From Gemmatimonadota bacterium (GTDB lineage: Bacteria; Latescibacterota; UBA2968; UBA8231), in assembly GCA_038128265.1 (NCBI GenBank), contig JAYPJE010000010.1, positions 28,849 through 52,464 of the forward strand: a stretch of 23,616 nt of DNA, read 5' to 3'. Under the pieces are notes generated by a model that saw only the letters and a list, made by a program, of their open reading frames with translations, was not told the DNA's origin and did not search any database. Positions 1-22,138 of this stretch are shown here, in pieces. Made by a program: the position numbers and the translations under genes. Each line of letters begins with the position of its first letter. Positions within the stretch are counted from its first letter, which is position 1.

Positions 1-1278
1 CGGCGTGGCCGTCATGACCAGTAAGTCGGGCTTTTCTCCCTTCTTATACAGGGCTCCGCGCTGAACGACGCCGAAGCGGTGCTGCTCATCGACAACGGCT
101 AGTCCCAACCGCGCAAACTCGACGTCCGACTGAATAAGCGCATGCGTTCCCACTGCGATCTGCGCCGCGCCGCTGGCCAGTGCCTCCTGCACCTGACGCC
201 GCGCCTTTACCCGCTGTTTACCCTTTACCAAAACAGCCTGCAGCCCCAGCGGTTCGACTAGGCTGCGCACGGTTAAGAAGTGCTGCTCTGCGAGAATTTC
301 CGTTGGTGCCATCAGGGCCGCCTGATAGCCATTTTCGACCGCTGTCAGCATGGCGCACAGCCCTACCAGCGTTTTGCCCGAACCCACGTCCCCCTGCACC
401 AGCCGGTTCATTGGATGCGGCTCGTGCATATCAGCCGCTATTTCGTCCACTACGCGCTCTTGGGCGGCCGTAAGGGCAAACGGCAGCGAATCCAGCAGCT
501 GGGGCACGCGCTCCTGACTTGGGCGAAAGGCAATCCCAGAGGGTTCGGCGAGACGGCGCGCACGCAGGCGCGCGAGGCGCAGCTGCAGGTGAAAAAACTC
601 ACCAAAGGCCAGGCGCGCACGCGCGCGTTCTACCTCGCTCATATCGCTGGGAAAATGAAGGCCCTTGAGCGCATCCGCCAGCGGCATGAGCCCCTGGCGA
701 GTGCGCACAGCCGCTGGTAGGTCGTCCGCGAGTTGCCCGGCAAATTCCTCGAGCGCACCGCGCATCAAACGGCGAAATGCGCGGCTGCGCAATCCGCGTT
801 CCTTCATATCGGCACTGGAGGTATAGAGCGGAATAATACCGCCGGTGTGCAGCAGTTCGCCTTCGCCAGCCGAAGCGACGAATTCGTACTCGGGGTGGAC
901 AATCTGCCGCCGACCCTGGAATAGATCGACCTTGCCACTGAGGGCCAGCTCATCCCCTTCGTCGAAGTTGTGCTGCATATAGCGCCCACCCGAAAACCAC
1001 GTGCAGGTGATGTCGTCCGTCTCGTCCTCGACGACCAACACAAAGCGCGGCCGTCGGCCGGGGATAAATTGCATGCTGCGCACCTGACCGATCAGCGTTA
1101 TTTCCTCGCCAATCGGCGACCGGCCAATCGGCACGATACGCGTGCGGTCGACGTAGCGCCGCGGCCTGTACCAAAGGAGATCGCCCAGCGTAAAAATGCC
1201 CGCTTCGTTGAGAACAGCTGCTCTCTTAGCGCCGATCCCCCGCACCTTATCTATCGTTAAATCAACAACTTCGGCCAT
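1..1278 (-). CDS. recG: ATP-dependent DNA helicase RecG (3' end runs off the window)
   Basis: Absent from the ORF track because it has no stop in the window. Manual translation from ATG 1278 gives MAEVVDLTIDKVRGIGAKRAAVLNEAGIFTLGDLLWYRPRRYVDR, then wedge-domain ALSGKVDLFQGRRQIVHPE, ARARLAFGEFF, Walker A MNRLVQGDVGSGKT (about 370-411), VGTHALIQ, VVDEQHRFG and LLVMTATP at the edge, all in one frame. Confidence 0.97.
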   Translation of the reverse strand, partial: MAEVVDLTIDKVRGIGAKRAAVLNEAGIFTLGDLLWYRPRRYVDRTRIVPIGRSPIGEEITLIGQVRSMQFIPGRRPRFVLVVEDETDDITCTWFSGGRYMQHNFDEGDELALSGKVDLFQGRRQIVHPEYEFVASAGEGELLHTGGIIPLYTSSADMKERGLRSRAFRRLMRGALEEFAGQLADDLPAAVRTRQGLMPLADALKGLHFPSDMSEVERARARLAFGEFFHLQLRLARLRARRLAEPSGIAFRPSQERVPQLLDSLPFALTAAQERVVDEIAADMHEPHPMNRLVQGDVGSGKTLVGLCAMLTAVENGYQAALMAPTEILAEQHFLTVRSLVEPLGLQAVLVKGKQRVKARRQVQEALASGAAQIAVGTHALIQSDVEFARLGLAVVDEQHRFGVVQRGALYKKGEKPDLLVMTATP

Positions 1279-1379: not shown

Positions 1380-2171
1380 ATGCCCACTTATTTCAAGCGA
1401 GACACCCCATCCTTGCCCATAGAAATCGGCGATCGCCTGCGCTTGCGCTATGACCAACCGCACCGCGGTTACGTGGAACAGACCGGGCTCCTGCAGGACG
1501 TGCGCAACGGCGCGCTGTGCATTGATGTGGATCCCACCTGCCGGCCGCTGCGCGGCTCGATCGTACAGGTAAGCAGCCTATGCGCCAACGCGGACGAGGT
1601 GGCATTTTCCAGCGAAATCCTCGGTCGCCATCGCCGGCAGGGCCAGTTGCCCGTCCTCCTCGTCAAAGTGCCAACGGCGGATACAGACCAGCGCCGCACT
1701 GCCCATCGCATAGAGGCAGCACTCAAGGCAGAAGCTCACTGGGAAGATGACGAGCTCACACAAAGACGGCAAACGGGCGTGTTGACGAATTTAAGCGGTG
1801 GAGGGGCGTGTCTGTTCACGCGCGCGCGGCCCGAGGTCGAACGCCTGCACATCGACATCTGTGCTCCCGATGCCTTTATCGAAGGGTGGGCCGCGCGGAG
1901 CGCCGAGCGCATGCATCGCGCCCCCCGTGCCGGCGCTGTGTGCACGGACCCCCTGCAGGCGGTGCGCCAGGCCCTGTCCAAGGAATTTGAAAACATCGAG
2001 TGCCGCATTGTCGAAAGCAGCGTATACAAGCGCGACAAACGCGGTCCCATACACGCGCTGGCCCTGTCTTATGTCGCTCCTCGCGAGAGCTGTTTTCGCC
2101 TAGTTCGCTTTCTGGAACGGCAGGCGCTCCAGCGCGGCCTGGAAGCACCGCAGCCGCGGGTAGCCGCCTAG
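1380..2171 (+). CDS. PilZ-domain c-di-GMP-binding protein, YcgR/flagellar-brake-like
   Basis: 263 aa. QRRTAHR (RxxxR) and NLSGGG (D/NxSxxG) motifs follow a predicted beta-rich N-terminal domain of about 100 aa. C-terminal helix LVRFLERQAL. GAGGA RBS upstream. Confidence 0.85.
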   Translation: MPTYFKRDTPSLPIEIGDRLRLRYDQPHRGYVEQTGLLQDVRNGALCIDVDPTCRPLRGSIVQVSSLCANADEVAFSSEILGRHRRQGQLPVLLVKVPTADTDQRRTAHRIEAALKAEAHWEDDELTQRRQTGVLTNLSGGGACLFTRARPEVERLHIDICAPDAFIEGWAARSAERMHRAPRAGAVCTDPLQAVRQALSKEFENIECRIVESSVYKRDKRGPIHALALSYVAPRESCFRLVRFLERQALQRGLEAPQPRVAA

Positions 2172-2175
2172 CGGA

Positions 2176-2205
2176 TTGACACGCAGCCAAAGGGACGATT
2201 ATCTT
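2176..2205 (+). promoter_or_regulatory. Putative sigma-70 promoter for the membrane protein gene
   Basis: TTGACA(2176-2181)-N18-TATCTT(2200-2205). Confidence 0.4.
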
Positions 2206-2250
2206 TCGCCCACCCCACAGCTCTTTTCCCTTGCCCATTTGGAGCGACGC

Positions 2251-2736
2251 GTGTCTTCTCGCCTGTCGTTTTCACAGTATTTGGTGGGACATGCCGCGCC
2301 GGTCAGGCCGCCGTTTTTTTACGCCTATATAGGCATGTGGCTGCACTTGCTGCTAGCCGGTGGCGTGGGCCTGCTGCTGGTAGCATCCGATGCGCTATCT
2401 CTGCTATCGTCGCTGGTGATGGCCTCGCTGGCGCTGGGCCTGATCATCTACGCCCTTCTCGCACGCCAATATGCCCTCTGCATCAATGCCTTTTCATACG
2501 CTGCCTATATGGCGTCTGCTTTCTCATCGAGCGCGTACGGCGTCCTGCTCGCCGTGGCTCTTAGTGCATCCCTCGTTTCCACTCACGTTCTCTTTGCACG
2601 CGAATACAGGCTATATCACCGCGAAGCCTTAGCGGAGGACATCCCACCCGTTCCAACCTGGGCGACGGCAGGCACCGCAGCACTCGTTCTCGCGCTCTTT
2701 GCCTTCGCCCTGGCTCTGCTGCCTAACGGATTTTAA
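2251..2736 (+). CDS. Hypothetical integral membrane protein (about 161 aa, 4-5 TM segments)
   Basis: In frame with ORF 2176..2736. GTG 2251 is preferred because GGAG lies at 2241-2244. Several hydrophobic stretches, no family recognised. The 3' end overlaps the mraY stop by 14 nt. Confidence 0.7.
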   Translation: MSSRLSFSQYLVGHAAPVRPPFFYAYIGMWLHLLLAGGVGLLLVASDALSLLSSLVMASLALGLIIYALLARQYALCINAFSYAAYMASAFSSSAYGVLLAVALSASLVSTHVLFAREYRLYHREALAEDIPPVPTWATAGTAALVLALFAFALALLPNGF

Positions 2737-3829
2737 TCGTCGCCAACCCGCACAGAGCCAGAATACCCGCTACGATCCAAAAGCGAATGACGATCTTGGT
2801 GTCGGCCAGGCCCCGCTGCTGGAAATGGTGGTGAATGGGCGCGCGCGCAAAAAAGCGCCGCCCCAGCCACTTGACGCCAATCTTGTCTTGTATAATGACC
2901 GAAAGGGCCTCGGCGACAAAGATCCCACCGACGATCAAAAAGAGAAACTCCTGTTTGACCAACACGGCTACCGTGCCCAGCAGACCGCCCAGCGCCATCG
3001 AACCCGTATCGCCCATAATTACATTGGCCGGATACGAATTAAACCACAGAAAGCCGAGGCACGCGCCAAAGACGATTGAGCAAATAATGGCAACCTCCCC
3101 CACGCCAGGCATAAAGGGAAAGATGAGAAACTCGGCAAAGCGCGCGTGGCTGGAGATATAGGCAAATACGCCAAAGACCGCCACGACAAAAGCCGTGGGG
3201 ACGACCGCCAGGCCATCGACCCCGTCGGCTATATTTACCGCGTTGGATATCGCCGTTATGGTAAATGCGATAAAGGGGATGTAAAACCAGGTCAAGTCAA
3301 TCAGCGGATACTTGAGAAAGGGCACGTACAGCTGCGTGGCCACTTCGGGCGGTAGCGGCGTTAGACCGGCCGTGGCGTATATAGCGCCAAAGACCAGACA
3401 ATAGCCTCCCTGCAGAGCCAATTTCGCCGTTTCCGACAGGCCGTGATCGCTGCTGCGGTGGCGCACTTTCAAGTAGTCGTCTACCCAACCGAGCCCGGCA
3501 AAGAACAGCAATCCTCCCAGGCACAGCAGCACAAATCCAGTGTGCAATTTACACCACAGGACGACACTGATCAGGATGACGGCGACCAGCAGTGGCCCCC
3601 CATAGGTCTTAGAGGGATTGCCGGCAGAAGAGTAGTTGAGATAGTTGCGGGGCCGATCGCGGTGACCGAGAAGGTAAAAATAGCGAATTACGCGCCCGCC
3701 AAAGAGGATCGTCAGGAGCAACGCCGTAATGGCACCGCAGATGGCGCGAAAGCTGATGGAGTCGACTAGGCGCAGAAAAGACAGCGCCGTGAATGCCTCC
3801 TGAAGATAAATGCCTACGTAGTAGATCAT
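2723..3829 (-). CDS. mraY: Phospho-N-acetylmuramoyl-pentapeptide transferase MraY (divergent)
   Basis: 368 aa, multi-TM. Motifs GWVDDYLK, SNAVNIADGVDGLA, GFLWFNSYPANVIMGDTGSMALGG, EALSVIIQ, APIHHHF, KIVIRFWI. Confidence 0.92.
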   Translation of the reverse strand: MIYYVGIYLQEAFTALSFLRLVDSISFRAICGAITALLLTILFGGRVIRYFYLLGHRDRPRNYLNYSSAGNPSKTYGGPLLVAVILISVVLWCKLHTGFVLLCLGGLLFFAGLGWVDDYLKVRHRSSDHGLSETAKLALQGGYCLVFGAIYATAGLTPLPPEVATQLYVPFLKYPLIDLTWFYIPFIAFTITAISNAVNIADGVDGLAVVPTAFVVAVFGVFAYISSHARFAEFLIFPFMPGVGEVAIICSIVFGACLGFLWFNSYPANVIMGDTGSMALGGLLGTVAVLVKQEFLFLIVGGIFVAEALSVIIQDKIGVKWLGRRFFARAPIHHHFQQRGLADTKIVIRFWIVAGILALCGLATIKIR

Positions 3830-5850
3830 AGAACGCGCACGTCGCGGCTACCGCCTTCGCGGCTGGCTCCCACCTGCTGCGACAGCGCGCGCAGCGACTC
3901 GTTGAGTGCAAAGGTCGGCGTAAAGTGGGGCGATGATGCGATGATCCCATCCAGGTCGCGCGCGACCTCGTCGGCGCTAAATACGCCGCGTTCTACGCCG
4001 CGTGCCAATGCGCCGACTACGCCCTGGCGAAACTGTCCGTTGGGATGCAAATAGAAGCCGCGCAGTCGGGGCAGCAGGCCGCTGCCCGTTCCAATCTCGC
4101 CCAGCGCGTTGAGCGCTGCCACTACCACATCGGGCGAACGATCGTCGAGCGCCTGCATGAGCGCCGACTCTGCAGCAGCATCGACCGCCCCCGCTTCGCC
4201 CAACATCCGCGCAGAGGCCGCACGCACTTCAAAGTAGGGATCCTCTACCAGCGCCACTGCCAGCGCCGCCCGCGTCGAGACATCGTCTGCACCCAAGCCT
4301 CCAATGCCCCACTCGACTACGTTGCGCCGCAAAATACCGCCGTGCTGATAGTCTCCTCCACACAGGCGCCGCAGGCGAGAAACCGGTCGACGGTCCAACA
4401 AAATCTTCAACAGCAGCGGGCGCTGTGCCTCGTAGGCCAGCAGGCCAACCAATTTGATGCCAACGTTGCACCGCCCCAGTGGCACCTCATACCAAGCACG
4501 GGATACGAGCAGGCGATCCGCCTGGTAGCGCAGGTACGCTAGCTCGGCCGGCGCCATCGCCCCTATCCCCCCCCCTTCGCGCAGCTGTGCCTGCACCCAA
4601 CGCAGCAGCGCATTGGCGTCGGCCGGTGGACCACTGCGGCGCAGCGGAAACTCCAAATTCAGCGGCGCGCCGCGGCGTTCGGTAGCCAACTGCCCAATCT
4701 CGTCCATTATCAGCGCCAGGCTGTCGCGCTGCGGCAGCTTTGCTGCGGCCTGTGCCATGGCATTCAGGCGCCCTGTATCGCTGAGAAGGTCCTGCAGGCA
4801 GCGCCCCAACTCCTCGCCGTCGACCGCACTTTCCAGCCCGAGATCGCCCCAGCGCGCGCGCTGGTAGATAACCTGGGCGGCGCCCAGCCGTTCCATTTCT
4901 CGCGCATTGGCCGCCTGATGATCTTCCGCTGCCGTAGCCAGCGGCACAATGAGTGCGGGTTTGCCCGCCACGCACAGCTCTGTCAGCGTGCCAGCCCCTC
5001 CTCTGCACACTACCAGATCAGCCGCGGCATAGGCCCGGTGGATGTCATCCATATACTCCAGTGGGCGATACCACGTTGCATCGTTGGCCAAACCCAAATG
5101 GGCCACTGCTTCTCGCGTGTCGGCGACGGCATCGTAGTCTGGACCGCGGTAGCGCCCTGTGATGTGCAGCACGCAGAGATTGTCCATACGGGCCAGCCTC
5201 GGCAGCGCCGCAACCAAGGCTTCGTTGACGACGCGCGCACCGCCGGAACCGCCAAATACCAATACCACCTGGACGTCCGGATCCAAGCCCAACGCCGCGC
5301 GCGATGCATCGCGGTCGAGTTCGAGAAATTCGCGGCGCACCGGGTACCCGACTACGGCGACTCGTTTCATATCAAACCAGCGGCCGGCCTGTTCAAAGGC
5401 AATGCCAACGCGGTGGGCAAGGCGGCCGACAACCTGGTTGAGCATGCCCGGATGGGCATTGGGTTCGTAGAGGAATACGCGCGCGCGCGACAGCCCGATT
5501 TTCTGCAGCAAACCGTGCGCAAAGAGAATGGGAGCGCTGACGTACCCGCCGGTGCCAACGATGACCTGTGGACGAAAACGCAGCAAGATAATTATGCTCT
5601 GGACGATCCCCCAGGCGAGGACGAGGGCGAAAGCTACCAGAGCGCGCACAGAGCGCGAGCGAGGATAGGCGCGCGCGCGCACAAAGCGAATTGGAAAGTC
5701 ACGAGCGGGCACCGCCCACGCCTCCAACTTATCGCGCCGCCCCACGTAGAGAAAGCGCGCGTCGCTCTGGCGTCGCCGGATTTCTTCGGCAATGGCCAAC
5801 GCCGGATAGACGTGCCCTCCCGTTCCCCCTCCTGTAAGCAGATATCTCAT
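3826..5850 (-). CDS. murG: MurG-type GT28 glycosyltransferase fused to a C-terminal HEAT-repeat-like domain
   Basis: The first about 390 aa carry GGGTGGHVYP, GTGGYVS, EPNAHPG, GYPVR, FGGSGGA, AADLVVCRGGAGTLTE and DHQAANA. The remaining about 280 aa look helical, with DPYFEVRAASARMLGE and ALDDRSPDVVVAALNALGEIG. ATGA overlap with mraY. Confidence 0.9.
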   Translation of the reverse strand: MRYLLTGGGTGGHVYPALAIAEEIRRRQSDARFLYVGRRDKLEAWAVPARDFPIRFVRARAYPRSRSVRALVAFALVLAWGIVQSIIILLRFRPQVIVGTGGYVSAPILFAHGLLQKIGLSRARVFLYEPNAHPGMLNQVVGRLAHRVGIAFEQAGRWFDMKRVAVVGYPVRREFLELDRDASRAALGLDPDVQVVLVFGGSGGARVVNEALVAALPRLARMDNLCVLHITGRYRGPDYDAVADTREAVAHLGLANDATWYRPLEYMDDIHRAYAAADLVVCRGGAGTLTELCVAGKPALIVPLATAAEDHQAANAREMERLGAAQVIYQRARWGDLGLESAVDGEELGRCLQDLLSDTGRLNAMAQAAAKLPQRDSLALIMDEIGQLATERRGAPLNLEFPLRRSGPPADANALLRWVQAQLREGGGIGAMAPAELAYLRYQADRLLVSRAWYEVPLGRCNVGIKLVGLLAYEAQRPLLLKILLDRRPVSRLRRLCGGDYQHGGILRRNVVEWGIGGLGADDVSTRAALAVALVEDPYFEVRAASARMLGEAGAVDAAAESALMQALDDRSPDVVVAALNALGEIGTGSGLLPRLRGFYLHPNGQFRQGVVGALARGVERGVFSADEVARDLDGIIASSPHFTPTFALNESLRALSQQVGASREGGSRDVRVL

Positions 5851-6016
5851 CGCCCAAACGCCGCTTTAGCAGAGTTTCCGCGCTATCTATTGGCCTACAA
5901 GGGGGTGATAGACGCGAAATTCTCGGGTGAAAAAAGGGCTATTTACACCCCATCAAAAATAACGTAAACAAATATATATACAAAAGTTATGGGTGTCTAT
6001 TGCAATTTATCTTTGC

Positions 6017-6079: not shown

Positions 6080-6820
6080 ATGACGCCAGCACACGCCGCC
6101 CTCGAACCCGATCACATCGCCGCATTTCACCGCGAGGGCTTCTTAGTGGTAGAAGACCTTCTCAGCGCAGAAGAAGTGGATAGATTTATCGAATACGAAG
6201 CGCGCGGAGTCGGTGATGGTCCCCGTGGTCTGCAGCGGCACAAAGTCGACGAACAGTGGGCACACATCGCCCATCATCCGCGCATTGGCAGCATCGTCCG
6301 CCAGCTGGGCGGTCCCCACCCACAGATCGTCCAAACCATGTATATGAACAAGGCTCCTTCCGGGGGCACCGGCGTAGCCCTACATCAGGATACCCATTAT
6401 ATACGAAACGAGCCCAATACGCTGATGGCCTGCTGGATCGCTCTCAGCGATACGGACGGCGATAACGGCGGCCTGTGCGTGGTTCCCCAGAGCAACCACA
6501 ACGGGCTCTATGAATTTGAGCGCGTGCGCGATACGGACCAACACACTTCATGGGAACAGGTCTATCCGATGAGCGATCGGCAGGGAAAAGCGTGGGAAGA
6601 GACGATGCACTCCTTTGATATCAAGGGCCTGCGCGACGAAGAGATCGCGCGTCTTAGCGTCCCCTGTGGAGCGGGCGTATTCTTCACCGGGATGACCGTG
6701 CACGGCTCCTATGCCAACGATTCGACCGACCGGCCGCGGCGCGCCTTTGCAACGCATTTCGTGCAGGAGGGCACCTGGATTTTCCGCCGCGATCTACAGG
6801 AGATGGTCGCCCTTCACTGA
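6080..6820 (+). CDS. Phytanoyl-CoA dioxygenase (PhyH) family Fe(II)/2-oxoglutarate oxygenase
   Basis: FHREGFLVVEDLLS start, HQD iron ligands, WIALSD...NGGLCVVPQS, VHGSYAN...RR. Confidence 0.92.
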   Translation: MTPAHAALEPDHIAAFHREGFLVVEDLLSAEEVDRFIEYEARGVGDGPRGLQRHKVDEQWAHIAHHPRIGSIVRQLGGPHPQIVQTMYMNKAPSGGTGVALHQDTHYIRNEPNTLMACWIALSDTDGDNGGLCVVPQSNHNGLYEFERVRDTDQHTSWEQVYPMSDRQGKAWEETMHSFDIKGLRDEEIARLSVPCGAGVFFTGMTVHGSYANDSTDRPRRAFATHFVQEGTWIFRRDLQEMVALH

Positions 6821-6893: not shown

Positions 6894-8195
6894 CTAGCGG
6901 CCGTCGGCCGCTCCCACAGAAGGTAAGTTCTCTAGCCTGGCCAAGCATTCCAACACGGCGCGACCGTTGTGGTAGGGGCTTTTCCAGGCGCTTGCTTTGT
7001 TCCCCGCGGCACGACCGTCAATGCCAATCTCGGCGTGCCAATCGCCCCCCCGCCAATCGACCTGATGCGCCTCGATCCAGTCATAGGTTTTAATGAAAGC
7101 ATCCCAATAGGCCCCATCTCCCGTAAGCTGGTAGAGCGAAAGTAACCCGACCAACCCTTCGGCCTGTACCCACCAAACCTTGTCCCGATCATCGGCAGAA
7201 ATGCCGAGGTCTCCCGCCTCGTAGAAGCCCCCGCGCGCGTGATCAAAGCCATAGCGCAGGGCATTGTCTACCAACAGCCGGTACAGGTCGACCAGGGGCC
7301 CGTTGGGCACGCCTGCTGCGCGACATGCAGTAGCCAACAGCCACGTATTCTCGACGTCGTGGCCGTAGGATACGCGCGCGCGCGGCGCATCGAGCAAGGG
7401 CTTCCAGCGGCGCGTATACTGGTCGGTGCAAGCACCCACTCCTTTGCGCACAACGGCATTACTCTGTATGAGGATGAGTTCGAGCAGCCGCTCACGTGCC
7501 AATTCATCGGCGCTCAGCTCCCAATACGTAGTCAGCGCCTCCATTAGGTGTAGATGCGTATTCATTAGCTTTACGTCGGACGCTACACCCATGTAATGAT
7601 CGCTCTCCGGACCGGGTGCCCAGTCGCGGCGAAACCATTCCGCGTAGCCTCCGTAGGCGGCATCGTGGGCCTTTTCCTCTATCAGATAGAACAGCGAATC
7701 AGCCATGTGCAGAGCTTCGCCGCGGCCGCTGGCCTGGGCATACTCGACGAGCGCATAGAGTGCGAAGGCCTGCCCGTATAGGTGTTTGTTCGAGCGCGTA
7801 GCGACCTTGCCGTTGGCACTGACCGCCCAAAAGAAACCACCAAATGCATCGTCCCATAGCGCGTCGCGCAAAAAGGCATAGCCGTGATCGGCCGCCTGCA
7901 GATGCTCTTGGCTGCCGTACCCGGCGTTATACAGGCGCGAGAAGAACCACAGCGTGCGCGCCTGCACAACCAGCGCCTTATCGGTGGGGCCCTGCCATGC
8001 GCCGCTGGCGTCGTGGTTAAGTCGATAGCCTCCCCCCTCCTCGTCTATCACCTGAGGATACCAGAACGGCAGGATATTTTCGCGCAGCATGCGCTCAAAC
8101 CCGCTGCGCACGCGCTCTACTTCAGCAGCGGTCGGCTGGGCAGCCGCCGGTACAGCAACCACTATCCATGCGAACAACCAAATAAGTATTGCCAT
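6894..8195 (-). CDS. AGE-family epimerase, cellobiose 2-epimerase-like, with predicted signal peptide
   Basis: ENILPFWY, QARTLWFFS, YGQAFALYAL, MNTHLHLMEA, SYGHDVE, WWVQAE and WKSPYHNGRA. Start placed at ATG 8195 (TTG 8207 possible) because a promoter-like element lies at 8228-8255. Confidence 0.88.
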   Translation of the reverse strand: MAILIWLFAWIVVAVPAAAQPTAAEVERVRSGFERMLRENILPFWYPQVIDEEGGGYRLNHDASGAWQGPTDKALVVQARTLWFFSRLYNAGYGSQEHLQAADHGYAFLRDALWDDAFGGFFWAVSANGKVATRSNKHLYGQAFALYALVEYAQASGRGEALHMADSLFYLIEEKAHDAAYGGYAEWFRRDWAPGPESDHYMGVASDVKLMNTHLHLMEALTTYWELSADELARERLLELILIQSNAVVRKGVGACTDQYTRRWKPLLDAPRARVSYGHDVENTWLLATACRAAGVPNGPLVDLYRLLVDNALRYGFDHARGGFYEAGDLGISADDRDKVWWVQAEGLVGLLSLYQLTGDGAYWDAFIKTYDWIEAHQVDWRGGDWHAEIGIDGRAAGNKASAWKSPYHNGRAVLECLARLENLPSVGAADGR

Positions 8196-8227
8196 CGCTT
8201 GCACCAATTTCTCATTTCTTTTCTGCC

Positions 8228-8287
8228 AATCTAAAGTGGGAAACTCAGCGGTCAAGCATTGACACAATTCTTCTCCGATCGTTTACT
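8228..8287. promoter_or_regulatory. Back-to-back divergent sigma-70-like promoters
   Basis: Minus strand TTGACC(8255-8250)-N16-TAGATT(8233-8228). Plus strand TTGACA(8259-8264)-N17-TTTACT(8282-8287). The -35 boxes form the dyad GTCAA-gca-TTGAC. Confidence 0.55.
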
Positions 8288-8332
8288 CATCCACTAGTGG
8301 TGATCCCCCAAACGTCGCCGACGGGAGGCCCA

Positions 8333-9346
8333 ATGCGCATTGCCATCGCAGGACTGCACTACGGACATATTGCCGGCATGCTATCCTCTGCCCGCAGCGC
8401 CCCCAACGCCGAGTGGGTCGGCGTCGTCGAGGCCGATGACGCGCTGTGCCAGCGCCATTTGAACGGCTTGGACATACCTCGCTACGACAGCGTAGAGCAG
8501 TTGCTGGCCACTGCCCGCCCCGAGCTAATCATCGAGGGGTTGCGACACGACGAAAAGGTCGCACTCGTCGAACAATGCGCCGCTGCCGGCGTGCACCTGC
8601 TGCTCGATAAACCCCTGTGCCGCACGTTCGAAGAGTGGGAGCGCATGCGCACGGCGCTGGCCGGCACAGACGTCGAACTTTCCATGTGGTTTACTTCGCG
8701 CGCCTACCCACCTTTTGTCGCCTTGCGCGAGATCGTTGCCGCCGGCGAACTCGGCGAACTGGTCAGCCTCATCTCGACCCATCCGCACAAGCTGCGCCGC
8801 GCGACCGCTACGCCCTGGTACTTTGACCCCGACGTATACGCCGGTACGTTTCACGATCTGGCCTGCCATGGGGTCGACCAAATACGCTGGCTGACGGGCA
8901 GCGAGTGTTCCGGCGTGCACGCCCTGTGGACCTGCAAGCGCTTTACCGACGCCCCCCAACTGATCGACCATGCCCAAGCTTCGTTTCGCCTCGAAAACGG
9001 CTCGTTGGCCACGCTGACCGCCGATTGGCTGACGCCCCAAGCGAGTCCGTCGTTTGGCGACACGCGCTTTATCCTCATGGGCACGCGCGGCTCGGCCCAC
9101 CTGCGCGCCTATGCCGACGACCACCTCTACGTCGTATCGGAGGCAAAGGGCGCCCACACACCAACGCTACCCGAAGGCCGCGGCCAGCGCGTTGTTGAGG
9201 ACTTGATCACTGCAATAGAGCGCGGCCAAAAGCCCCCCATCGACAAACGCGATGTGCTCTCCGTAGCCCTGGCCTGCCTGCGCGCCCAAGAGTCGGCAGG
9301 CAAAGACGGGCAGTGGACAGAGATCGAGCCATTTGCACTTGACTAA
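8333..9346 (+). CDS. Gfo/Idh/MocA family NAD(P)-dependent oxidoreductase
   Basis: Start MRIAIAGLHYGH at 8333 after a GGGAGG RBS. HLLLDKPL (EKP-like motif) and GTFHDLACHGVD. Confidence 0.9.
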   Translation: MRIAIAGLHYGHIAGMLSSARSAPNAEWVGVVEADDALCQRHLNGLDIPRYDSVEQLLATARPELIIEGLRHDEKVALVEQCAAAGVHLLLDKPLCRTFEEWERMRTALAGTDVELSMWFTSRAYPPFVALREIVAAGELGELVSLISTHPHKLRRATATPWYFDPDVYAGTFHDLACHGVDQIRWLTGSECSGVHALWTCKRFTDAPQLIDHAQASFRLENGSLATLTADWLTPQASPSFGDTRFILMGTRGSAHLRAYADDHLYVVSEAKGAHTPTLPEGRGQRVVEDLITAIERGQKPPIDKRDVLSVALACLRAQESAGKDGQWTEIEPFALD

Positions 9347-11863: not shown

Positions 11864-12979
11864 CTATGCTATGCTCACTTCGCCATCGCGCAGGCCCAGC
11901 GGCAGCGCTGCAGGACGCTGGCAGGTGCTCTTTACCTTCAGGCTCCTGCCGGCATCGGCTGCGTCGTGAAAGGCGTGCATAAGATCGAGCACGTGGTAGG
12001 TCAACGCGCCGCTAGCTCGGTGCAATCGGCCCGTGCGCAGCGCGTTGGCCATATCGGCTACGCCCAAGCTACGCGCATTTTCATTGTAGCCGTGCGTCAG
12101 CGGGACCTCTTTCCACTCGTCGCGCCCCCGCTTGTACTTGACGGTGCCGCCAAAGCCGTTGGGATCGGGCACGCTCAGCGAACCCTCCGTGCCGTAGACC
12201 TCTATGCGCGGTAGCTCGGCACCCCATACGTCGAAGCTCGTGGTGATCTGACCAACGGCTCCGCTGGCAAATTCCATAATGCCGACGATGTGCGTCGCCG
12301 TTTCGACGGGGATGACCTTGCCGAACTTCTTCTCGCTCGTAATCGTGCGTTCGGGAAAGGTGATGCGCGTGCAGCCGCTCACCTTGGCCACCGGCCCCAT
12401 CATATTGACCAGCGCCGTCAGATAGTACGGGCCCATGTCGAACATCGGCCCTCCCCCGCGCTCGTAGTAAAATTCCGGATCGGGATGCCAACTCTCGTGA
12501 CCGTGGCCCATCATAAAGGCATTGGCTGCGATCGGCTGGCCAATCCACCCATCATCGATCAGCTTGCGGCAGGTCTGATGCCCACCGCCGAGAAACGTAT
12601 CGGGCGCCCCGCCGACCAGCAGCCCCTTCTTCTCGGCCAGATCCAGCATGGCCTGTGCCTCTTCGCGCTCTACGGCCAGCGGCTTTTCGTTGTACACGCT
12701 TTTGCCGGCCTGCAGCGCCTGCAGCGCGACGCTGCCGTGCGCCTTGGGCACCGTCAAGTTGATAACGATTTCAATCGACTTGTCAGCCAGAAGCTGTTTA
12801 ACCGTGCAGGCACGCGGTATGTCAAACTCTTCCGCTCGCTCTTTGGCGCGCTTGCGATCCAGGTCGGCGCAGGCAGCTATTTCAATATCGCGAAAGGTCT
12901 TGCCGATGCGCATATAGGCTGCACTTATAGCCCCACAGCCAATAATTCCAACTTTTACAGGTCCCTTTTTCTTCGCCAT
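11864..12979 (-). CDS. Gfo/Idh/MocA family oxidoreductase
   Basis: [56 protein letters not shown]. Confidence 0.94.
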
Positions 12980-13975: not shown

Positions 13976-16357
13976 TCAGAACTCGATGCGCAGCCCGCAC
14001 GTGGGCAGGATGGGAAACATCCCGACCTCGTCAACTTCGGGCTGACTGTTGGCAAAGTCGTAGTCGATAAACCAGGTATTGCGTCGATTGCCAACGTTGA
14101 AAATCTGCAGGTAGGGCATCATCTGCCATGAACCATAATTGCGCTGCCATTCCAGACTCACATCCAGCCGCACATAGGCTGGCAGGCGCACGCCGTTTAT
14201 CCGCGTCGGCGCGTAAAATACGCTGACTTGCGGATCGCTCGGCGCCATGGAAGCAACGTACGCCGAACCAGGTTCCGTGATCGGCTGTCCCGTCGAATAG
14301 ACCATATTGGCACCGAAAAACCAGCGCCTCTGCCCGCTTCGCAGCGCCTTGGATAGGTCGATGCGGGCAACGGCGTTGAGCGTAGAAGTGCGATCGTGGC
14401 GCGGACTAAAAGAACGTCCGCCGTTGACCTCTGCAAAGACGTGGCGCGTGCGCGCTAGCGAATAGCCAACCCATCCACTTAGAGGGCCGGCATCCTTGCG
14501 CAGGAGTATCTCAAATCCGCTGGAATAGCCGTCCCCCACATTGAACAACCCCCGGGTGCTGGATATAGTAGGTCTATCCCGCTCGTCGAACTCCGACGCC
14601 TCTACAGCACCTAAATACGCGCGGTTGAATTGGTAGATATCGCTATAGCGCTTGTGGAATGCTTCCACTTCGAGCTGCCCCACTCGATGCCATTCGCGCT
14701 GGTAGCCAACGATGTAGTGCACGGCGCGAGACGCCCCCTGATGCGCGTTGGCTGCCGTCCATATATCGGCGGCGATAAAGCGCGGCACCCGGTGCACGTA
14801 TTGGTGATAGACCCCGGTAGCTACTTTTACCATGGATGACTCTGTCAGGCGGTACTTCAGCGCTATGCGCGGTTCGATATGATGCAGTTCTACAGCGCCT
14901 CTATAGCGGCTGTAGCGAACTCCTCCCAGCACATCCCCCAGGCCCCCGCGGGGGTTCCAGCGAATTGCCCCATAGAGCGCAGCCTGCTCGGGATGGTCGC
15001 GCACGTCGATTTTTCCAGATAGAAAATCCTGGGCATAGCGCGACTGCAGCCGCTTCCATTCGTAGCCGGCTTCAGCGCGCATCGACGAACTCCGATCATA
15101 CTGGACGTGGCCCTTTAGCGTGACGTCGTTTACCCCATTGCGCTCCTCTATCGAACCTTCAGAAAAGGCAAAGTCCGAGGCAAAGCGCGATGTCGTCAGC
15201 CCGAATTGACCGAAGAAGCGCGGTGTAAATACGCGCACGTAGCGCGCACTCGCCGTCTGGTTTTGCCAGGCGACGCCAAAGCCGCTTTTGTTTTTGGATG
15301 CTCCGCCATAGGTGATATCGAGCACATCGCGGCCGCCGAAAAATCCCAGTGTCAGCCTGTCGACATCACTCAGGTCGACCGTGGCCTTAATATGGCCGTC
15401 GTAGAAGTAGTAGTCGGGAATATCATCCGAGCGGCGGCCTATGGTCTGGTCAAAATAGGTTCGACGGAGCGAACCCGACAGCGAACCGCGCGTTCCAAGC
15501 GGGGTCTGCAAGGTGGATTTGACGGAGAGCAAACTGATCGCTACAACGCCCTGAAAGCGCTCTCGGCTGCCGTCGACATTCGCTACGTCGAGCACCGATG
15601 ACAGACGCCCTCCCCGCTCTGGGCCGAAGCCTCCTTTTGAAAGTTCGACCTGCTTTATGGCATCTGTGTTAAACGTCGAGAACAGACCAAACGCGTGTTC
15701 GGGACTGTAGACTTCAGCCCCGTCGATAAGGTAGAGGTTTTGGTCGGGCGTGCCCCCGCGCACGTAGAGCGCCGAGGAAAAATCGGATAGGGGTACGATA
15801 CCGGGCAGCGTGGCGAGCGAACGCAGCAGGTCCGCCTCGGCAAAGGGGGGAACCTGTTCGATATCCCGCGGCGCTAGATGGACCGTTGAAACAGTGCGGG
15901 CGAAGAGCCTGTCGGCCATGCGCAGCGAATCGCCCCGCACCAGCACCTCCTCGGCCTGCAGCGCTTTAGCGTCGAGAAATAGATCGATTCGAACGTGTCC
16001 ACCGGCCCCCACTATGACGGACTGCACAACGTCTTCAAAGCCAATAAACGAGGCGACGAGGGGCCAGCGACCAGCCGGCACGTCGGGAATGACAAAATAC
16101 CCGCTCTCGTTGCTGATCGACCCCAGCCCCAGGCCGCGCACCGATACGCTGGCACGGATCAGCGCCTCGCCATCGGCGCGGCTGTAGACAAACCCGCTAA
16201 TCGTCCCACTACCTTCTTCGGCACCCAGCGCGCGACAGCAGGCCAACAGCAGCGCGAAAATCCACACCCGCCCGCTAGGCGACGTCGCCTGCCCGCGGGT
16301 AGCCAAACGGCGCACCGCTACACGGCAGCGACCCTCAGGCGCTGAGCGCCAGCGCAT
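13976..16357 (-). CDS. TonB-dependent receptor with N-terminal carboxypeptidase-regulatory-like domain
   Basis: GTISGFV...GEALIRASV...SNESGYF, plug domain EADLLRSLATLPG...LYVRGGTPDQNLYLIDG, GGRLSSVLDV, RLPAYVRLDV, terminal LRIEF. The true start may lie somewhat downstream of 16357. Confidence 0.93.
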   Translation of the reverse strand: MRWRSAPEGRCRVAVRRLATRGQATSPSGRVWIFALLLACCRALGAEEGSGTISGFVYSRADGEALIRASVSVRGLGLGSISNESGYFVIPDVPAGRWPLVASFIGFEDVVQSVIVGAGGHVRIDLFLDAKALQAEEVLVRGDSLRMADRLFARTVSTVHLAPRDIEQVPPFAEADLLRSLATLPGIVPLSDFSSALYVRGGTPDQNLYLIDGAEVYSPEHAFGLFSTFNTDAIKQVELSKGGFGPERGGRLSSVLDVANVDGSRERFQGVVAISLLSVKSTLQTPLGTRGSLSGSLRRTYFDQTIGRRSDDIPDYYFYDGHIKATVDLSDVDRLTLGFFGGRDVLDITYGGASKNKSGFGVAWQNQTASARYVRVFTPRFFGQFGLTTSRFASDFAFSEGSIEERNGVNDVTLKGHVQYDRSSSMRAEAGYEWKRLQSRYAQDFLSGKIDVRDHPEQAALYGAIRWNPRGGLGDVLGGVRYSRYRGAVELHHIEPRIALKYRLTESSMVKVATGVYHQYVHRVPRFIAADIWTAANAHQGASRAVHYIVGYQREWHRVGQLEVEAFHKRYSDIYQFNRAYLGAVEASEFDERDRPTISSTRGLFNVGDGYSSGFEILLRKDAGPLSGWVGYSLARTRHVFAEVNGGRSFSPRHDRTSTLNAVARIDLSKALRSGQRRWFFGANMVYSTGQPITEPGSAYVASMAPSDPQVSVFYAPTRINGVRLPAYVRLDVSLEWQRNYGSWQMMPYLQIFNVGNRRNTWFIDYDFANSQPEVDEVGMFPILPTCGLRIEF

Positions 16358-17132
16358 TCTCGCCGAAAATAACGGGGAAACGGTGACCGTTGCTGGCCAC
16401 GGTCACCGCGTCCATATAGCACACGCTAAATGCGCGCCGAGCCTGGTCCGTGCGGTTTACGTCCGAGCTGTGCAGGAGCCAGTTGTGCAAAAGGACGACT
16501 TCGCCGGCGGCCAGTTCCAGCGGTACTGGATCGCTTTTTTCGAGCAGCCGCTGCGTTTGCTCCTCCGTGAGAAAACCCGAACCGTGTTCCGGGTTGACGA
16601 GCGCCGAGTGCGAACCGGGCACAACGTGCACGCAGCCGTTGGCCACCGTTGCCGCATCAAGTGCCGTCCACACCGTGACTAGGGGATCGCGGTCCAGATT
16701 TGTCCAGCGATCTTGGTGCCACACCAGATTGGTACCTTCGCCGGCGGGTTTGTTCATAAACATGGCGCGAAAGCAAGCGATATCCGCTGCTTCACCATAT
16801 GCGCGGGCGCATATGTGGCGAAAGAGTGGGTGCTGCATATACTTCAGAAAGGCGTCGTCGTATTCGAGGTCCTGTATTTTGCGATAGGCCAGCGTTGGCC
16901 CTTTAAATCCCCTCGACTGCGGCCCCGGCCCCGACCCCGGCCCATCCGCGCAGTCCAGCTGCATCATCATGCGGTCGTAGTCGACGTCGGCCCGGCCCAT
17001 CATGATATCGTCCATCCGCGTTTGTAGGGTCTCCAATTCATCCGGACTAGCCACCTGCCCCAGCGATAAAAACCCATCGCGCTGGAACTGCTGCCACGCC
17101 TCGTCCGTTAGTCTTTCCGCGGTAGTATTCAT
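16335..17132 (-). CDS. PhyH family Fe(II)/2-oxoglutarate dioxygenase
   Basis: FQRDGFL, WHQD, VWTALD...NGCVHVVPGSH, LHSSDVN...RRAFSVCY. AAGGGGGA RBS. Confidence 0.93.
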   Translation of the reverse strand: MNTTAERLTDEAWQQFQRDGFLSLGQVASPDELETLQTRMDDIMMGRADVDYDRMMMQLDCADGPGSGPGPQSRGFKGPTLAYRKIQDLEYDDAFLKYMQHPLFRHICARAYGEAADIACFRAMFMNKPAGEGTNLVWHQDRWTNLDRDPLVTVWTALDAATVANGCVHVVPGSHSALVNPEHGSGFLTEEQTQRLLEKSDPVPLELAAGEVVLLHNWLLHSSDVNRTDQARRAFSVCYMDAVTVASNGHRFPVIFGENALALSA

Positions 17133-19613: not shown

Positions 19614-22097
19614 TTAGCGCAGTATGAGCATTTTCTTGCTCGTCGTACCCGCCCGCGTTTGCAAGCGATAGATATACAGCCCCGTAGCCAGCATTTCACC
19701 GCGCTCGCTGCGACCGTCCCAGTGCATCAGGTGATCGCCCGCTTCCATCCATCCCGATGCCAGCGTCGCCACGCGCTGACCGGTCAAATTATAGACGCTC
19801 AGCAGCGCGTCTCCAGCAACGGGAAGTGCAAAACGAATAGCCGTCTCTCCGTTAAACGGGTTGGGCGCATTTTGCGTTAAACCATGGTGCGCCGGCGTCC
19901 AATCCGCGGACTCTTCGACCACGGCGGTATAGGCATCGGCCTGCCGATCGGCCACCAGGCGCACGTCATCAACGTAAAACGTGCCGCGCAAGTTGCCCAA
20001 TATGCGCAGCGAGGTAATTGGCCCTTGCAGGCGATAGAAGCGCTCTAGGGGAATCTCTACGCGCTGCCATTCGGCTCGCGCCATATCTACCTCGGCCCCT
20101 TCTCCGTCGAAGAGCAATACCTGCGATGGAGCATCGCCGTTTAGCATGACGTTGAAGGCTGGTCGCGTGCCTACGGTAGCACTGCCCGGATGGAAGGCAA
20201 AGTGCAAGGAGCGGTAGCCGGCTGCTTCAACCGGTTGGATCGGCAGAAACTCGACGGTGAATGCGCTGGCGCGTATTCCCTGGGACAGCGCACCCACCGC
20301 GGCCTGTTCGCTGGCATCATACACTTCGGCATTGGATACAAATCCCGGCGTCCAATTGTCGCCGAAGCCCTCGTCAAAGACGATCTGATCTTCGCGCGGC
20401 AATACCACTATCTCATGGCGCATTTCGGACTGCAGCAGACCAGCGGTGCTCTGCTGCTCTATATGCAATACGATTTCACGCCTACCATTGGCCAGCGCTA
20501 CCGGCAGCACTGCGCGCAGCCGGTAGAGGCCACTGCCCAACGACTCCAGCGGCTGGGCTCTATCGCCGCCCAACGCACTGAGATCGGCCACCACCTGAGG
20601 GACAGCCCCGTCGGGATGTGTGCTGTGAACGCGTAAGTCCCCTTCCCATGCGACGGCCGCTCCGCTCACCAGCGTATCGGGCAGCACACGGACCCACTCG
20701 CCGCGCACGTGAGGCGCGGGAAAGCGCGCGCTGACAAGTTGGATATCGTCCAAGAAGAAACGACCGCGCAGATTGCCAAAAAAGGTAATAGACTCGAGCG
20801 GATCTTCCAGCGGATGGAAGGTCCACAGCGGTATCTCTACTGTCTGCCAAGCAGGCGATTTGAGGTCGATACCGGCACCGGACACGGCACCTGCTCCGAT
20901 CAGATTTTCGATTTTACGCGCGTCGCGATTGAGCTGCACGGCGAAAGCCGGACGCAGCCCCACCGTCGCCTCCCCCGGGTGAAAAGCAAAGCGCAGCGCG
21001 CGGTAGCCGGCCAGGTCAACCGGCTCGACTGGGGCGAGTTCAAGGGTAAACGATTGCGCATCAACCGCCAGTGCTCGCGCGCCCTCCAACACCTCTTCTC
21101 CCTGCCAGTCAACTTCTGCATTAAGCAAGAGTCGCTGTGTCCACTCTTCGCCCAGCGCATCGTTGGCTACGGGCGCATTCATTGGGGGAATGAGCACCAC
21201 CCTTCGGCTCAGATGCTCCTCGACATCCCCCTGTTTCAAGACGACGCGCAGGTTTCGCCTCCCCGGTTGGGCACCCGCCCGAAAGGCAGCCTCGAGTTCA
21301 TACGTTCCATCACCTACCGCCCGCATCGGCTGTCGAATATCCCCTCCCAACGCACCTAAGTCAGCCCATGCCTCGATGGGCCCTGCTTCGTCCGCTTTGA
21401 CCGCCAAACGGGCGCGCAGACGGGCCGGCTCGCCGGCGACCAATGTATCAGCCCATCCCTCTTGCCATAGCCCCTGCAGCCCTCCCGGCTCAAAGTAGGG
21501 TATATGCATGCGGATATAGCGACGGTGATCGCTCGAAATAATGGCATCTTCAACGGCCTGACGACCGTAGCGCGTATAGCGACCAATATCGGCATCGTCC
21601 GTATTGGTAAAGCCTCCATTGAACACTTCGCTCCACTTGCTGGCTGGATCCATCGCGTAGTAATAGCGCGCGTCGTATCCCACCAAAACAATTAGGTGGC
21701 CGACAGTGGAAAACCCGCCGTGCACAATGACCGGCTTTCCCGCATCGAGGGCCGCGTGCAGTTGGACGAGCGTGCCGTCCTCTGTCGCCCCATCGCGGAC
21801 GCGCAGACCGCGCAGAGCCGCTTCCTCGTCAAAAACCTCGCGCAGCCCCCCCGTCGATTGGGCGACGGAGGTACCCCATTTAGCCGATATGAGGTCGGGG
21901 GTGATATCGGAAGCTCCGTAAAACTTGAGCACCATGGCGACGCAGGTGTTTTGACAAGACCCCGAGGGATTGATGCGGTTGCTGAACTGGTGGAAGTACG
22001 GCATCCCCTCGATATAGCCGGCACCAGACCTGCTGGCTATAAGCACGACAAGGACGATTGCGAAAACACCATACACCTGACGCATCACCGTTGACAT
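19614..22097 (-). CDS. Secreted modular protein: C39-like cysteine peptidase, two copies of an Ig-like plus CBM-like unit, and a FlgD-Ig/T9SS-like C-terminal domain
   Basis: ATG 22097 follows a GGAGAGG RBS, then signal peptide MSTVMRQVYGVFAIVLVVLIASRSGA. PYFHQ...GSCQNTCVAM, GHLIVLVGYD and MDP give a Cys-His-Asp triad. C-terminal QNAPNPFN...VYNLTGQRVATL...WDGR...GLYIYRL...KKMLILR. Confidence 0.82.
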   Translation of the reverse strand: MSTVMRQVYGVFAIVLVVLIASRSGAGYIEGMPYFHQFSNRINPSGSCQNTCVAMVLKFYGASDITPDLISAKWGTSVAQSTGGLREVFDEEAALRGLRVRDGATEDGTLVQLHAALDAGKPVIVHGGFSTVGHLIVLVGYDARYYYAMDPASKWSEVFNGGFTNTDDADIGRYTRYGRQAVEDAIISSDHRRYIRMHIPYFEPGGLQGLWQEGWADTLVAGEPARLRARLAVKADEAGPIEAWADLGALGGDIRQPMRAVGDGTYELEAAFRAGAQPGRRNLRVVLKQGDVEEHLSRRVVLIPPMNAPVANDALGEEWTQRLLLNAEVDWQGEEVLEGARALAVDAQSFTLELAPVEPVDLAGYRALRFAFHPGEATVGLRPAFAVQLNRDARKIENLIGAGAVSGAGIDLKSPAWQTVEIPLWTFHPLEDPLESITFFGNLRGRFFLDDIQLVSARFPAPHVRGEWVRVLPDTLVSGAAVAWEGDLRVHSTHPDGAVPQVVADLSALGGDRAQPLESLGSGLYRLRAVLPVALANGRREIVLHIEQQSTAGLLQSEMRHEIVVLPREDQIVFDEGFGDNWTPGFVSNAEVYDASEQAAVGALSQGIRASAFTVEFLPIQPVEAAGYRSLHFAFHPGSATVGTRPAFNVMLNGDAPSQVLLFDGEGAEVDMARAEWQRVEIPLERFYRLQGPITSLRILGNLRGTFYVDDVRLVADRQADAYTAVVEESADWTPAHHGLTQNAPNPFNGETAIRFALPVAGDALLSVYNLTGQRVATLASGWMEAGDHLMHWDGRSERGEMLATGLYIYRLQTRAGTTSKKMLILR
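19950..21480 (-). repeat. Internal tandem duplication of about 260 aa within the C39-like protein (boundaries approximate)
   Basis: Paired motifs ADTLV/PDTLV, ADLGALGG/ADLSALGG, GDGTYEL/GSGLYRL, GYRALRFAFHPG/GYRSLHFAFHPG, WQTVEIPL/WQRVEIPL and GNLRGRFFLDDIQLV/GNLRGTFYVDDVRLV, about 780 nt apart. Confidence 0.9.
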
Positions 22098-22138
22098 CAA
22101 AGTCCTCTCCTCTCTAAGCCAGGTAAAACCGCACCGAT

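Follow-up and report, generated by a model that had tools for sequence, protein, structure and literature searches.

What does a long helical extension do on MurG, the glycosyltransferase that moves N-acetylglucosamine (GlcNAc) from uridine diphosphate (UDP)-GlcNAc onto lipid I, and why is the gene for such an enzyme found next to mraY, outside the division and cell wall (dcw) cluster? The question is raised by a stretch of 23,616 nucleotides (nt) from an assembly labelled Gemmatimonadota bacterium and placed by GTDB in the Latescibacterota (GCA_038128265.1, contig JAYPJE010000010.1, positions 28,849 to 52,464 of the forward strand); the whole stretch is called the window here. It carries a gene, termed murG-HEAT, whose product consists of an intact MurG glycosyltransferase (residues 1-384) and an all-helical extension of 290 amino acids (aa; residues 385-674) with HEAT-like repeats. 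The tail is probably a built-in scaffold, because the module it contains adjoins or is fused to other lipid II membrane enzymes in many lineages. That the HEAT module serves in the cytoplasm as a scaffold by which MraY is coupled to MurG, and to MurJ in lineages that have it, stands, judged from gene context, about an even chance of being correct.

The enzyme half has the features of a genuine MurG. Pfam assigns three domains to the protein, Glyco_transf_28 (83.2 bits against a gathering score of 26.2), Glyco_tran_28_C (100.9 bits against 22) and, in the extension, HEAT_2 (PF13646, residues 529-615, E 2.7e-10, 40.8 bits against a cut-off of 27.7). Among solved structures, the N-terminal 380 residues match the MurG proteins of E. 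coli (1F0K, E 1.8e-38) and P. aeruginosa (3S2U, E 4.5e-34). The GGTGGH loop occupies residues 8-13, and E291 and Q312 pair with an E and a Q of E. coli MurG 1F0K in the alignment. All of these, which we take to be the G-loop and the nucleotide-sugar-binding residues of MurG, are invariant in the alignment of homologues. The NCBIfam murG equivalog TIGR01133 covers residues 3-384 with 234.9 bits (237.3 in the genome search), its cut-off being 250.25. All HEAT-fused MurGs reach 214-245 bits on this profile while being the sole homologue of their genomes, and one of ten well-known control genomes (E<=1e-20) likewise has a MurG under the cut-off. A helix of the N-terminal domain (residues 68-92, window positions 5575-5649, minus strand; VRALVAFALVLAWGIVQSIIILLRF) seen in the model corresponds to the membrane-association region of E. 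coli MurG and is far more hydrophobic than that region. This suggests a deeper membrane insertion within the HEAT-fused clade.

The extension begins with a linker, poorly ordered and of low model confidence at residues 396-404, and two adaptor helices. This part (residues 385-459) is kept among fused forms and has no alignable counterpart in the stand-alone protein described below. It is followed by a core module (residues 460-663) common to stand-alone, MurJ-fused and triple-fusion proteins, in which AlphaFold2 places about five HEAT-like repeats (460-637) and a C-terminal capping helix (647-661). The full-length model reached a predicted local distance difference test score (pLDDT) of 82.0 and a predicted template-modelling score (pTM) of 0.81 from a 30-row alignment; the tail alone, from a 69-row alignment, gave 85.4 and 0.82, respectively, with 14 helices. 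Foldseek matched the tail to alphaRep HEAT-like proteins (E 2e-4, template-modelling score about 0.5-0.57), and VIA-align to alphaRep (Z 18.0 and 17.8) and E. coli YibA (14.9). CpcE/F and the PP2A A subunit were also among the HEAT/ARM solenoid fold matches, and the sequence profile of the module (69-row alignment) matched alphaRep at E 2.1e-44. The label "HEAT-like" holds, since Foldseek, VIA-align and the sequence profile all lead to HEAT/ARM solenoids. As modelled, the tail is an alpha-solenoid of the protein-binding HEAT/ARM kind. Sequence and fold searches of solved structures gave no functional lead for the tail, only repeat scaffolds, and an ESM Atlas feature search with residues 455-665 returned generic HEAT clusters only.

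The tail is about as conserved as the enzyme part: when 30 homologues are aligned, over 30 positions from residue 399 to 656 are invariant. Its signature is a loop in repeat 2 together with R508-R509-N510 directly after it; R495, G498-G499-D500, H503, G505 and R508-R509-N510 are invariant or nearly so in three alignments. By our reading of the repeat register, the loop would be a 16-residue insertion. It represents the strongest non-canonical conservation in the module and is a candidate binding site. In the window protein (residue 605, at about 4036-4038) and its closest relative, Gly takes the place of a Trp that is otherwise nearly invariant within the H-P-N-W-Q motif of HEAT repeat 5.

An earlier note on this DNA, prepared from the letters alone, had described one continuous 674-aa frame with a C-terminal extension of about 280 aa ending in about three HEAT units. 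The continuous open reading frame (ORF) is there, with all peptides quoted in the note, and positions 3826-4680 do encode tail (residues 391-674 plus the stop). The extension is somewhat longer than stated, and the number of repeats has to be raised to the roughly five of the AlphaFold2 models, although their HEAT-like nature and the folding of the tail as an alpha-solenoid are borne out.

The union of both parts is widespread among relatives. Counts of loci given here refer to the 80 best related loci, which stem from species-representative genomes, many of them closed chromosomes. At 77 of these loci, nothing interrupts the shared frame of glycosyltransferase and tail; of the other three, two are truncated by a contig start, and L092 has the parts in two frames. 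The best 120 homologues listed are 605-714 aa long and 56-100% identical at 90-100% coverage, and each of the 120 has the three Pfam domains. Contigs of two other studies bridge the domain junction without indels (4376-4869 and 4580-4945), and the murG/mraY junction is bridged without gaps by an other-study contig spanning 3543-4226. Across the gene pair, these contigs show 12 substitutions, of which eight are synonymous and none creates a stop. The stop or split near position 4680 that the earlier note had kept in mind is seen neither in the junction-crossing contigs nor at the uninterrupted loci.

The gene downstream of murG-HEAT is mraY, adjacent as previously described, and its ATG overlaps the murG TGA as ATGA at 3826-3829. 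The encoded MraY scores 292.3 bits on TIGR00445 against an equivalog cut-off of 192.05, with the match beginning at profile position 34. The genome of the window (4.29 Mb, 102 contigs, 84.5% complete) contains a single MurG match and a single MraY above the cut-off. Its dcw cluster is located on contig C36 in the order ftsI-murE-murF-ftsW-murC-ftsQ-ftsA-ftsZ, and tblastn found murG and mraY absent from it. Judging from the gene content, the fused gene is the housekeeping MurG, relocated out of the dcw cluster. An RNA run over the window yielded two 151-nt contigs only, both within mraY, and is unusable for expression or co-transcription.

The arrangement is retained over long distances. mraY lies directly downstream of the module at 79 of the 80 loci, the contig ending at the remaining one, and the gap between the two has a median of -4 nt, with the 4-nt overlap at 39 of the 77 measurable loci. 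The ten most distant loci (L094-L103), at 35-41% identity, carry labels such as Myxococcota, Syntrophobacteraceae, KSB1 and "bacterium", among others. All ten keep murG-HEAT-mraY intact, and none has any of six flank genes of the window. In the five genomes checked outside the phylum, taken from these distant loci, the fused form is always the only TIGR01133 match. In two genomes (G105:C3:1447863-1448747 and G155:C29:21120-22004), mraY sits in an open frame of 1055 and 1132 aa, respectively, far more than the length of MraY; this frame also runs across the murG-HEAT gene, which is read in a different one. These long frames could be due to chance in GC-rich DNA or could represent a frameshifted three-part fusion.

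Within the phylum, 168 species genomes were available in the collection, sorted into families of which f1 is that of the window. Most relatives are labelled Candidatus Latescibacterota, and some of the closest were given as Gemmatimonadota, Planctomycetota or Handelsmanbacteria by their submitters. Strong matches to the tail (E 1e-27 or better) occur in 73 of the 75 other f1 genomes, 3/3 f2, 1/1 f13 and 4/5 f14 genomes; the two f1 genomes without a match are 58% and 76% complete. Families f3-f12 have weak generic HEAT matches only (E 1e-6 to 1e-3). Each genome with a match has one MurG, except G029, in which contig ends seem to have divided one gene. MurG is of the long form (214-245 bits) in f1, f13 and f14 and of the short form (about 238-325 bits) in f2-f12.

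Family f2 thus combines a short MurG with the module, which in all three genomes is a separate ORF of about 300 aa, located 6-128 nt upstream of the only true mraY. In G037, the stand-alone ORF comprises 311 aa and is 38% identical to window residues 462-660 (E 6e-33); HEAT_2 is its main Pfam match, and a glycosyltransferase domain is absent. In the two other f2 genomes, it lies about 125 nt upstream of mraY. The murG of G037 (370 aa, 305 bits) is found on another contig than the module-mraY pair, and the dcw cluster of this genome reads ftsI-murE-murF-ftsW-murG-murC-murB-ftsQ-ftsA-ftsZ, with mraY absent. In G037 (L016, G037:C1, 7807-10598), the HEAT-mraY pair comes after two genes for YkuD L,D-transpeptidases and a 239-aa ORF that belongs to no known family, and from this gene content the f2 surroundings are a small cell-wall neighbourhood outside the dcw cluster. 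The 239-aa ORF was considered as a decayed MurG and rejected, as it has no MurG similarity and no Pfam or NCBIfam match. Two library proteins of about 333 aa (P0135, P0136), considered as further stand-alone modules, are probably fragments, because they cluster with 676- and 671-aa members.

The MraY proteins of the phylum fall into three grades on TIGR00445. Those of f5-f12, families without the HEAT module, are canonical and embedded in the dcw cluster, a few kb from murG, at about 380-408 bits (one contig-cut copy 327.7). Those adjoining the module, in f1, f2, f13 and f14, reach 247-306 bits, and those of f3 and f4, far from murG, 113-129 bits. The HEAT-associated MraYs, a subtype that co-varies with the module, carry changes in the loop after the first transmembrane segment (TM1) and around the HHH loop, and an SDRGLS motif after the DD motif; the changed loops are presumably cytoplasmic, in line with the published MraY structure. 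In f3 and f4, which belong to the class of the window and are without the HEAT module, the best MraY homologue is about 330-360 aa long and stays below the cut-off of 192 bits (for example, L173 and L174, at G072:C1:2216716-2217564 and G040:C1:2180534-2181358). This protein is a strongly diverged MraY or else a different GT4 enzyme that replaces MraY.

The module is also connected with MurJ. A search with the tail over 1.84 billion representative proteins gave 208 matches at E<=1e-10, many of them generic HEAT proteins. Among them, Pfam identified in single-stretch matches five proteins of about 1300 aa with the order MurG-MurJ-HEAT (P0173, P0189, P0191, P0203, P0231), and one of 1219 aa with the order MurJ-MurG-HEAT (P0174). 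The modules of the triple fusions keep the motifs N-x-x-V-K-L, D-R-x-P, GGDF...GF-RRN, DPY-EVR, H-x-N-W and F-x-P-x-F, and mraY is found about 110-130 nt downstream in all five complete triple-fusion loci, which come from metagenomes. Of the five f13/f14 genomes with the fused gene, four have murJ as a gene of its own immediately upstream of murG-HEAT-mraY; in the fifth, G034, it is on another contig. The three genes of this cluster together account for every membrane step in making and flipping lipid II, and P0174 looks like a fusion of murJ with the murG-HEAT of such a cluster. An apparent MurJ-HEAT protein of 771 aa (P0175) is probably a split triple fusion, because a 529-aa protein is encoded on the same contig and a member of its cluster is 1305 aa long; a genuine two-domain MurJ-HEAT protein is not claimed.

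Canonical MurJ itself (PF03023, E<=1e-25) is present in seven of the 168 phylum genomes: 4/5 f14, 1/1 f13, 2/31 f4 and 0/75 of the window's family. Of 14 control genomes, 7 reach this threshold. Two weak PF03023 matches in the genome of the window (L104, G000:C79; L105, G000:C45) were rejected as MurJ, one being a MATE efflux transporter and the other a Wzx-like MOP flippase. The MurJ part of the model is not applicable to the organism of the window, since its family is without canonical MurJ.

The relationship of fused and unfused enzymes was investigated with 42 MurG catalytic domains (IQ-TREE, LG+C20); the tree has no outgroup from other phyla, and its root is undefined. It comprises the window protein, seven f1 loci (from 70), three from f13/f14, ten distant fused forms, four triple fusions plus P0174, and 16 unfused MurGs of Latescibacterota. 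A branch supported at 98/98 separates all 26 HEAT-linked MurGs from the unfused MurGs of f2, f3 and f4, which come from the window's own class, and therefore the fused enzyme is not simply the vertical MurG of the class plus a tail. The tree is compatible with a cassette that arose once and with later transfer or displacement.

The coordinates of these elements and of other features are listed in Table 1. Besides murG-HEAT and mraY, the window contains no cell-wall genes. All loci sharing recG or one of the two small ORFs next to it are of the window's family type. The sigma-70-like promoter match upstream of murG-HEAT is to be seen against the number of promoter-like consensus sites, with three found and 1.4 expected. 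The window further holds an N-acylglucosamine 2-epimerase-like gene, an MFS/ATG22 transporter, and a CarboxypepD_reg+Plug (TonB-type) receptor followed by a DUF4249 gene. From its gene families, the part of the window rich in PhyH and GFO genes looks like a sugar or glycan utilisation neighbourhood.

Table 1. Features of the window and of the murJ-containing clusters of f13/f14 genomes (residues refer to the 674-aa protein).
Feature	Position	Strand	Description
murG-HEAT	3826..5850	-	single ORF, 674 aa plus stop
GT28 N-terminal domain (acceptor, membrane-facing)	5404..5841	-	residues 4-149, with GGTGGH loop; PF03033 (Glyco_transf_28)
GT28 C-terminal domain (UDP-GlcNAc-binding)	4744..5268	-	residues 195-369; PF04101 (Glyco_tran_28_C)
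Linker and two adaptor helices (412-426, 434-449)	4474..4698	-	residues 385-459; from model and alignments
Core HEAT-like module	3862..4473	-	residues 460-663 (~200 aa); five helix pairs plus capping helix
Loop inserted in HEAT repeat 2	4336..4386	-	residues 489-505 (R495..G498-G-D500..H503.G505); invariant or near-invariant columns
mraY	2723..3829	-	368 aa; TIGR00445; sole true MraY of the genome
Sigma-70-like promoter match	5971..5999	-	TAGACA-17-TATATT, 10/12; about 120 nt upstream of murG start; consensus match only
recG	1-1278	-	neighbour at 62/80 related loci
263-aa ORF	1380-2171	+	sub-threshold PilZ (21.9 against 22.5 bits); conserved at 28/80 loci
186-aa ORF	2176-2736	+	no Pfam/NCBIfam match; converges on mraY end; conserved at 30/80 loci
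PhyH-family dioxygenase paralogue	6080-6820	+	first of three
PhyH-family dioxygenase paralogue	16335-17132	-	second of three
PhyH-family dioxygenase paralogue	22139-22987	-	third of three
GFO/IDH/MocA oxidoreductase	8189-9346	+	first of three
GFO/IDH/MocA oxidoreductase	11864-12979	-	second of three
GFO/IDH/MocA oxidoreductase	22997-23551	-	third of three
879-aa protein	19614-22253	-	N-terminal Peptidase_C39-like, C-terminal FlgD_ig, ~600 residues between without assignment
murJ, murG-HEAT, mraY consecutive	G031:C4:38012-42803		f13/f14 genome
murJ, murG-HEAT, mraY consecutive	G033:C1:50935-55705		f13/f14 genome
murJ, murG-HEAT, mraY consecutive	G035:C33:336086-340914		f13/f14 genome
murJ, murG-HEAT, mraY consecutive	G036:C543:316-5064		f13/f14 genome

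In the model favoured here, the gene product would be the housekeeping lipid II synthase MurG with a C-terminal cytoplasmic HEAT-repeat scaffold. The solenoid surface and the loop R495/G498-G-D500/H503/R508-R509-N510 would hold MurG on the cytoplasmic face of MraY, whose gene, directly downstream of murG-HEAT, would be translationally coupled to it. In lineages with MurJ in the cassette, the module would hold MurJ as well. Lipid I from MraY would be handed directly to MurG, and lipid II onward to the flippase. The core of residues 460-663 is proposed to constitute a module family of its own, devoted to the membrane stage of making peptidoglycan precursors; from its genomic company we infer a physical binding to MraY and MurJ with substrate channelling. 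The earlier note had imagined a tail that docks MraY or Mur ligases, or that localises or regulates the enzyme. Comparative genomics favours the link to MraY and extends it to MurJ, whereas nothing points to the Mur ligases. A broader version of the model sees the module as the hub of an alternative, self-contained lipid II machine that replaces the dcw-encoded mraY and murG in Latescibacterota, KSB1 and others, with the cassette [murJ]-murG::HEAT-mraY specifying a coupled MraY-MurG-(MurJ) supercomplex. This version is tentative and somewhat less probable than the scaffold as such.

Several points weigh against the scaffold model. Binding is read from gene context only, and the invariant Arg/Lys-rich loop would fit an anionic small ligand or a lipid head group equally well. 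The MurG domain scores under the NCBIfam equivalog cut-off. The subtype signatures of MraY could be mere clade markers. As all fused MurGs are on one side of a branch, the adjacency of mraY may be inherited from one ancestral cassette; this is the main weakness, and the many loci are not independent observations. Of the stand-alone forms, only that of f2 has been verified in its genomic context, and several apparent stand-alone or MurJ-HEAT proteins of the library are fragments or split gene calls. Most genomes of the phylum, including all 75 other f1 genomes, are without canonical MurJ. A complex prediction of MraY (51-row alignment) with the extension (69-row alignment), made without controls, stayed at 0.24 in each of two runs, the mark being 0.32, and counts neither way.

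The loop is also the starting point of the strongest rival explanation, according to which the module is a ligand- or membrane-binding regulator. It would bind an anionic lipid or a nucleotide-sugar (undecaprenyl phosphate or pyrophosphate, the head group of lipid I or II, a phospholipid or a UDP-sugar) and in this way position, gate or feedback-regulate MurG, and perhaps MraY and MurJ. The strongest conservation does reside in the Gly/Arg/Asp/His-rich loop, in R508-R509-N510 and in K466, R487, R608 and R621, which is atypical for a generic HEAT surface, and the three enzymes accompanied by the module share only their undecaprenyl-linked substrate. However, profile and fold searches matched no known ligand-binding family, only repeat scaffolds, solenoids of this type are in general mostly protein binders, and a regulator of this kind does not require strict adjacency to mraY. 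Such a role is unlikely, though it is the alternative to be taken most seriously.

The partner of a protein-binding tail could also be a protein other than those of the scaffold model: a Mur ligase (MurF, MurC), a protein of the cytoskeleton or divisome (MreB, FtsA, FtsW, RodA) or an unknown flippase, with the tail replacing contacts lost when murG left the dcw cluster. MurG has been reported in complexes with elongation and division proteins (PMC2170320) and as a scaffold for Mur ligases (PMC6420597). The location of murG and mraY outside the dcw cluster agrees with this idea, and an unknown flippase as partner is conceivable because canonical MurJ is largely absent from the phylum. Yet mraY, murG and murJ are the only genes consistently linked with the module, the flanks varying between distant loci, and in f2 the module stays by mraY and not by the dcw genes. 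An adaptor for other partners is rated a little below a ligand-binding regulator.

A passive appendage, which merely stabilises or solubilises MurG or is a neutral relic, with the position of mraY inherited from an ancestral operon, would suit the single clade of fused MurGs, and stability has been suggested as a role of the partners in other Mur chimeras (PMC10214165). It is improbable: the tail is conserved like the catalytic domains across 56-89% identical homologues, with its 30 and more invariant positions, the signature motifs survive at 30-38% identity in stand-alone and MurJ-fused contexts, and eight of the 12 natural substitutions across the gene pair are synonymous. That a missed stop, a frameshift or a chimeric assembly joined a normal murG to a separate HEAT gene is scarcely credible: one locus of the 80 (L092) has the parts in different frames, but the 77 uninterrupted loci include closed chromosomes, no indel or stop appears where independent contigs of two other studies span the junction, and the architecture recurs in all 120 homologues listed.

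The scaffold model thus remains the preferred reading, and the protein may be compared with known systems. It resembles canonical MurG (E. coli 1F0K/1NLM; P. aeruginosa 3S2U) in its two-domain GT-B fold (GT28), its GGTGGH, E291 and Q312, and its standing as the sole homologue in a genome with murC/E/F, ftsW, ftsI and ftsZ. It differs in the 290 additional C-terminal residues, in being encoded outside the dcw cluster beside mraY, in its score under the TIGR01133 cut-off and in branching separately from the unfused MurGs of the phylum. The repeat type, by profile and fold, is that of HEAT/PBS-lyase-like proteins (alphaRep, CpcE/F, the PP2A A subunit, E. coli YibA 1OYZ); unlike these, the family has the 16-residue repeat-2 loop, a conserved F-x-P-x-F C-terminal cap and, exclusively, the genomic association with mraY, murG and murJ. 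A functional relation to them is not implied. A non-catalytic cytoplasmic element on an enzyme of the membrane steps has a parallel in mycobacterial MviN/MurJ with its C-terminal pseudokinase extension. SpoVK, which acts on B. subtilis MurG (PMC11513918), is a comparable element at such an enzyme. Folds and lineages are unrelated, and these elements are regulatory (phospho-signalling, AAA+ chaperone), in contrast to the putative scaffold shared among three enzymes.

Natural Mur chimeras, namely MurE-MurF, MurG-MurC, MurC-Ddl, MurD-FtsW and MraY-MurG, are likewise fusions within the peptidoglycan precursor pathway and have been read as evidence for multi-enzyme complexes (PMC10214165). In the window protein, the fused partner is instead a non-enzymatic repeat module that also occurs alone or in MurG-MurJ-HEAT and MurJ-MurG-HEAT proteins; a fusion of two enzymes, as in the Mur chimeras, is found in the MurG-MurJ-HEAT proteins elsewhere and not in the window. 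Passages on such chimeras in the survey mention neither HEAT nor MurJ fusions (PMC10214165). Lipid transfer between MraY, MurG and MurJ is treated in PMC9046198. The earlier note had asked whether the architecture was already common and characterised; it is common in uncultured lineages, and no description of a MurG-HEAT or MurJ-HEAT protein was found in open-access papers or on bioRxiv. The single paper containing both "MurJ" and "HEAT repeat" uses the terms in unrelated places.

MraY, MurG and MurJ appear here naturally joined via one module, which is stand-alone, MurG-fused, MurG-MurJ-fused or MurJ-MurG-fused and always beside mraY. Whether these three proteins act as a single complex is an old debate, conducted with two-hybrid, localisation and native mass-spectrometry data and without a structure. 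If the broader version of the model is true, the single-chain MurG-MurJ-HEAT proteins would directly attest to the coupling of lipid II synthesis with flipping in a single assembly. They and their relatives offer ready-made constructs for cryo-electron microscopy and for coupled lipid I/lipid II assays, with the R495-N510 loop as the surface to mutate. The arrangement also shows that, across a whole group of uncultured bacteria, the genes for the membrane steps of wall-precursor synthesis have moved out of the dcw cluster together.

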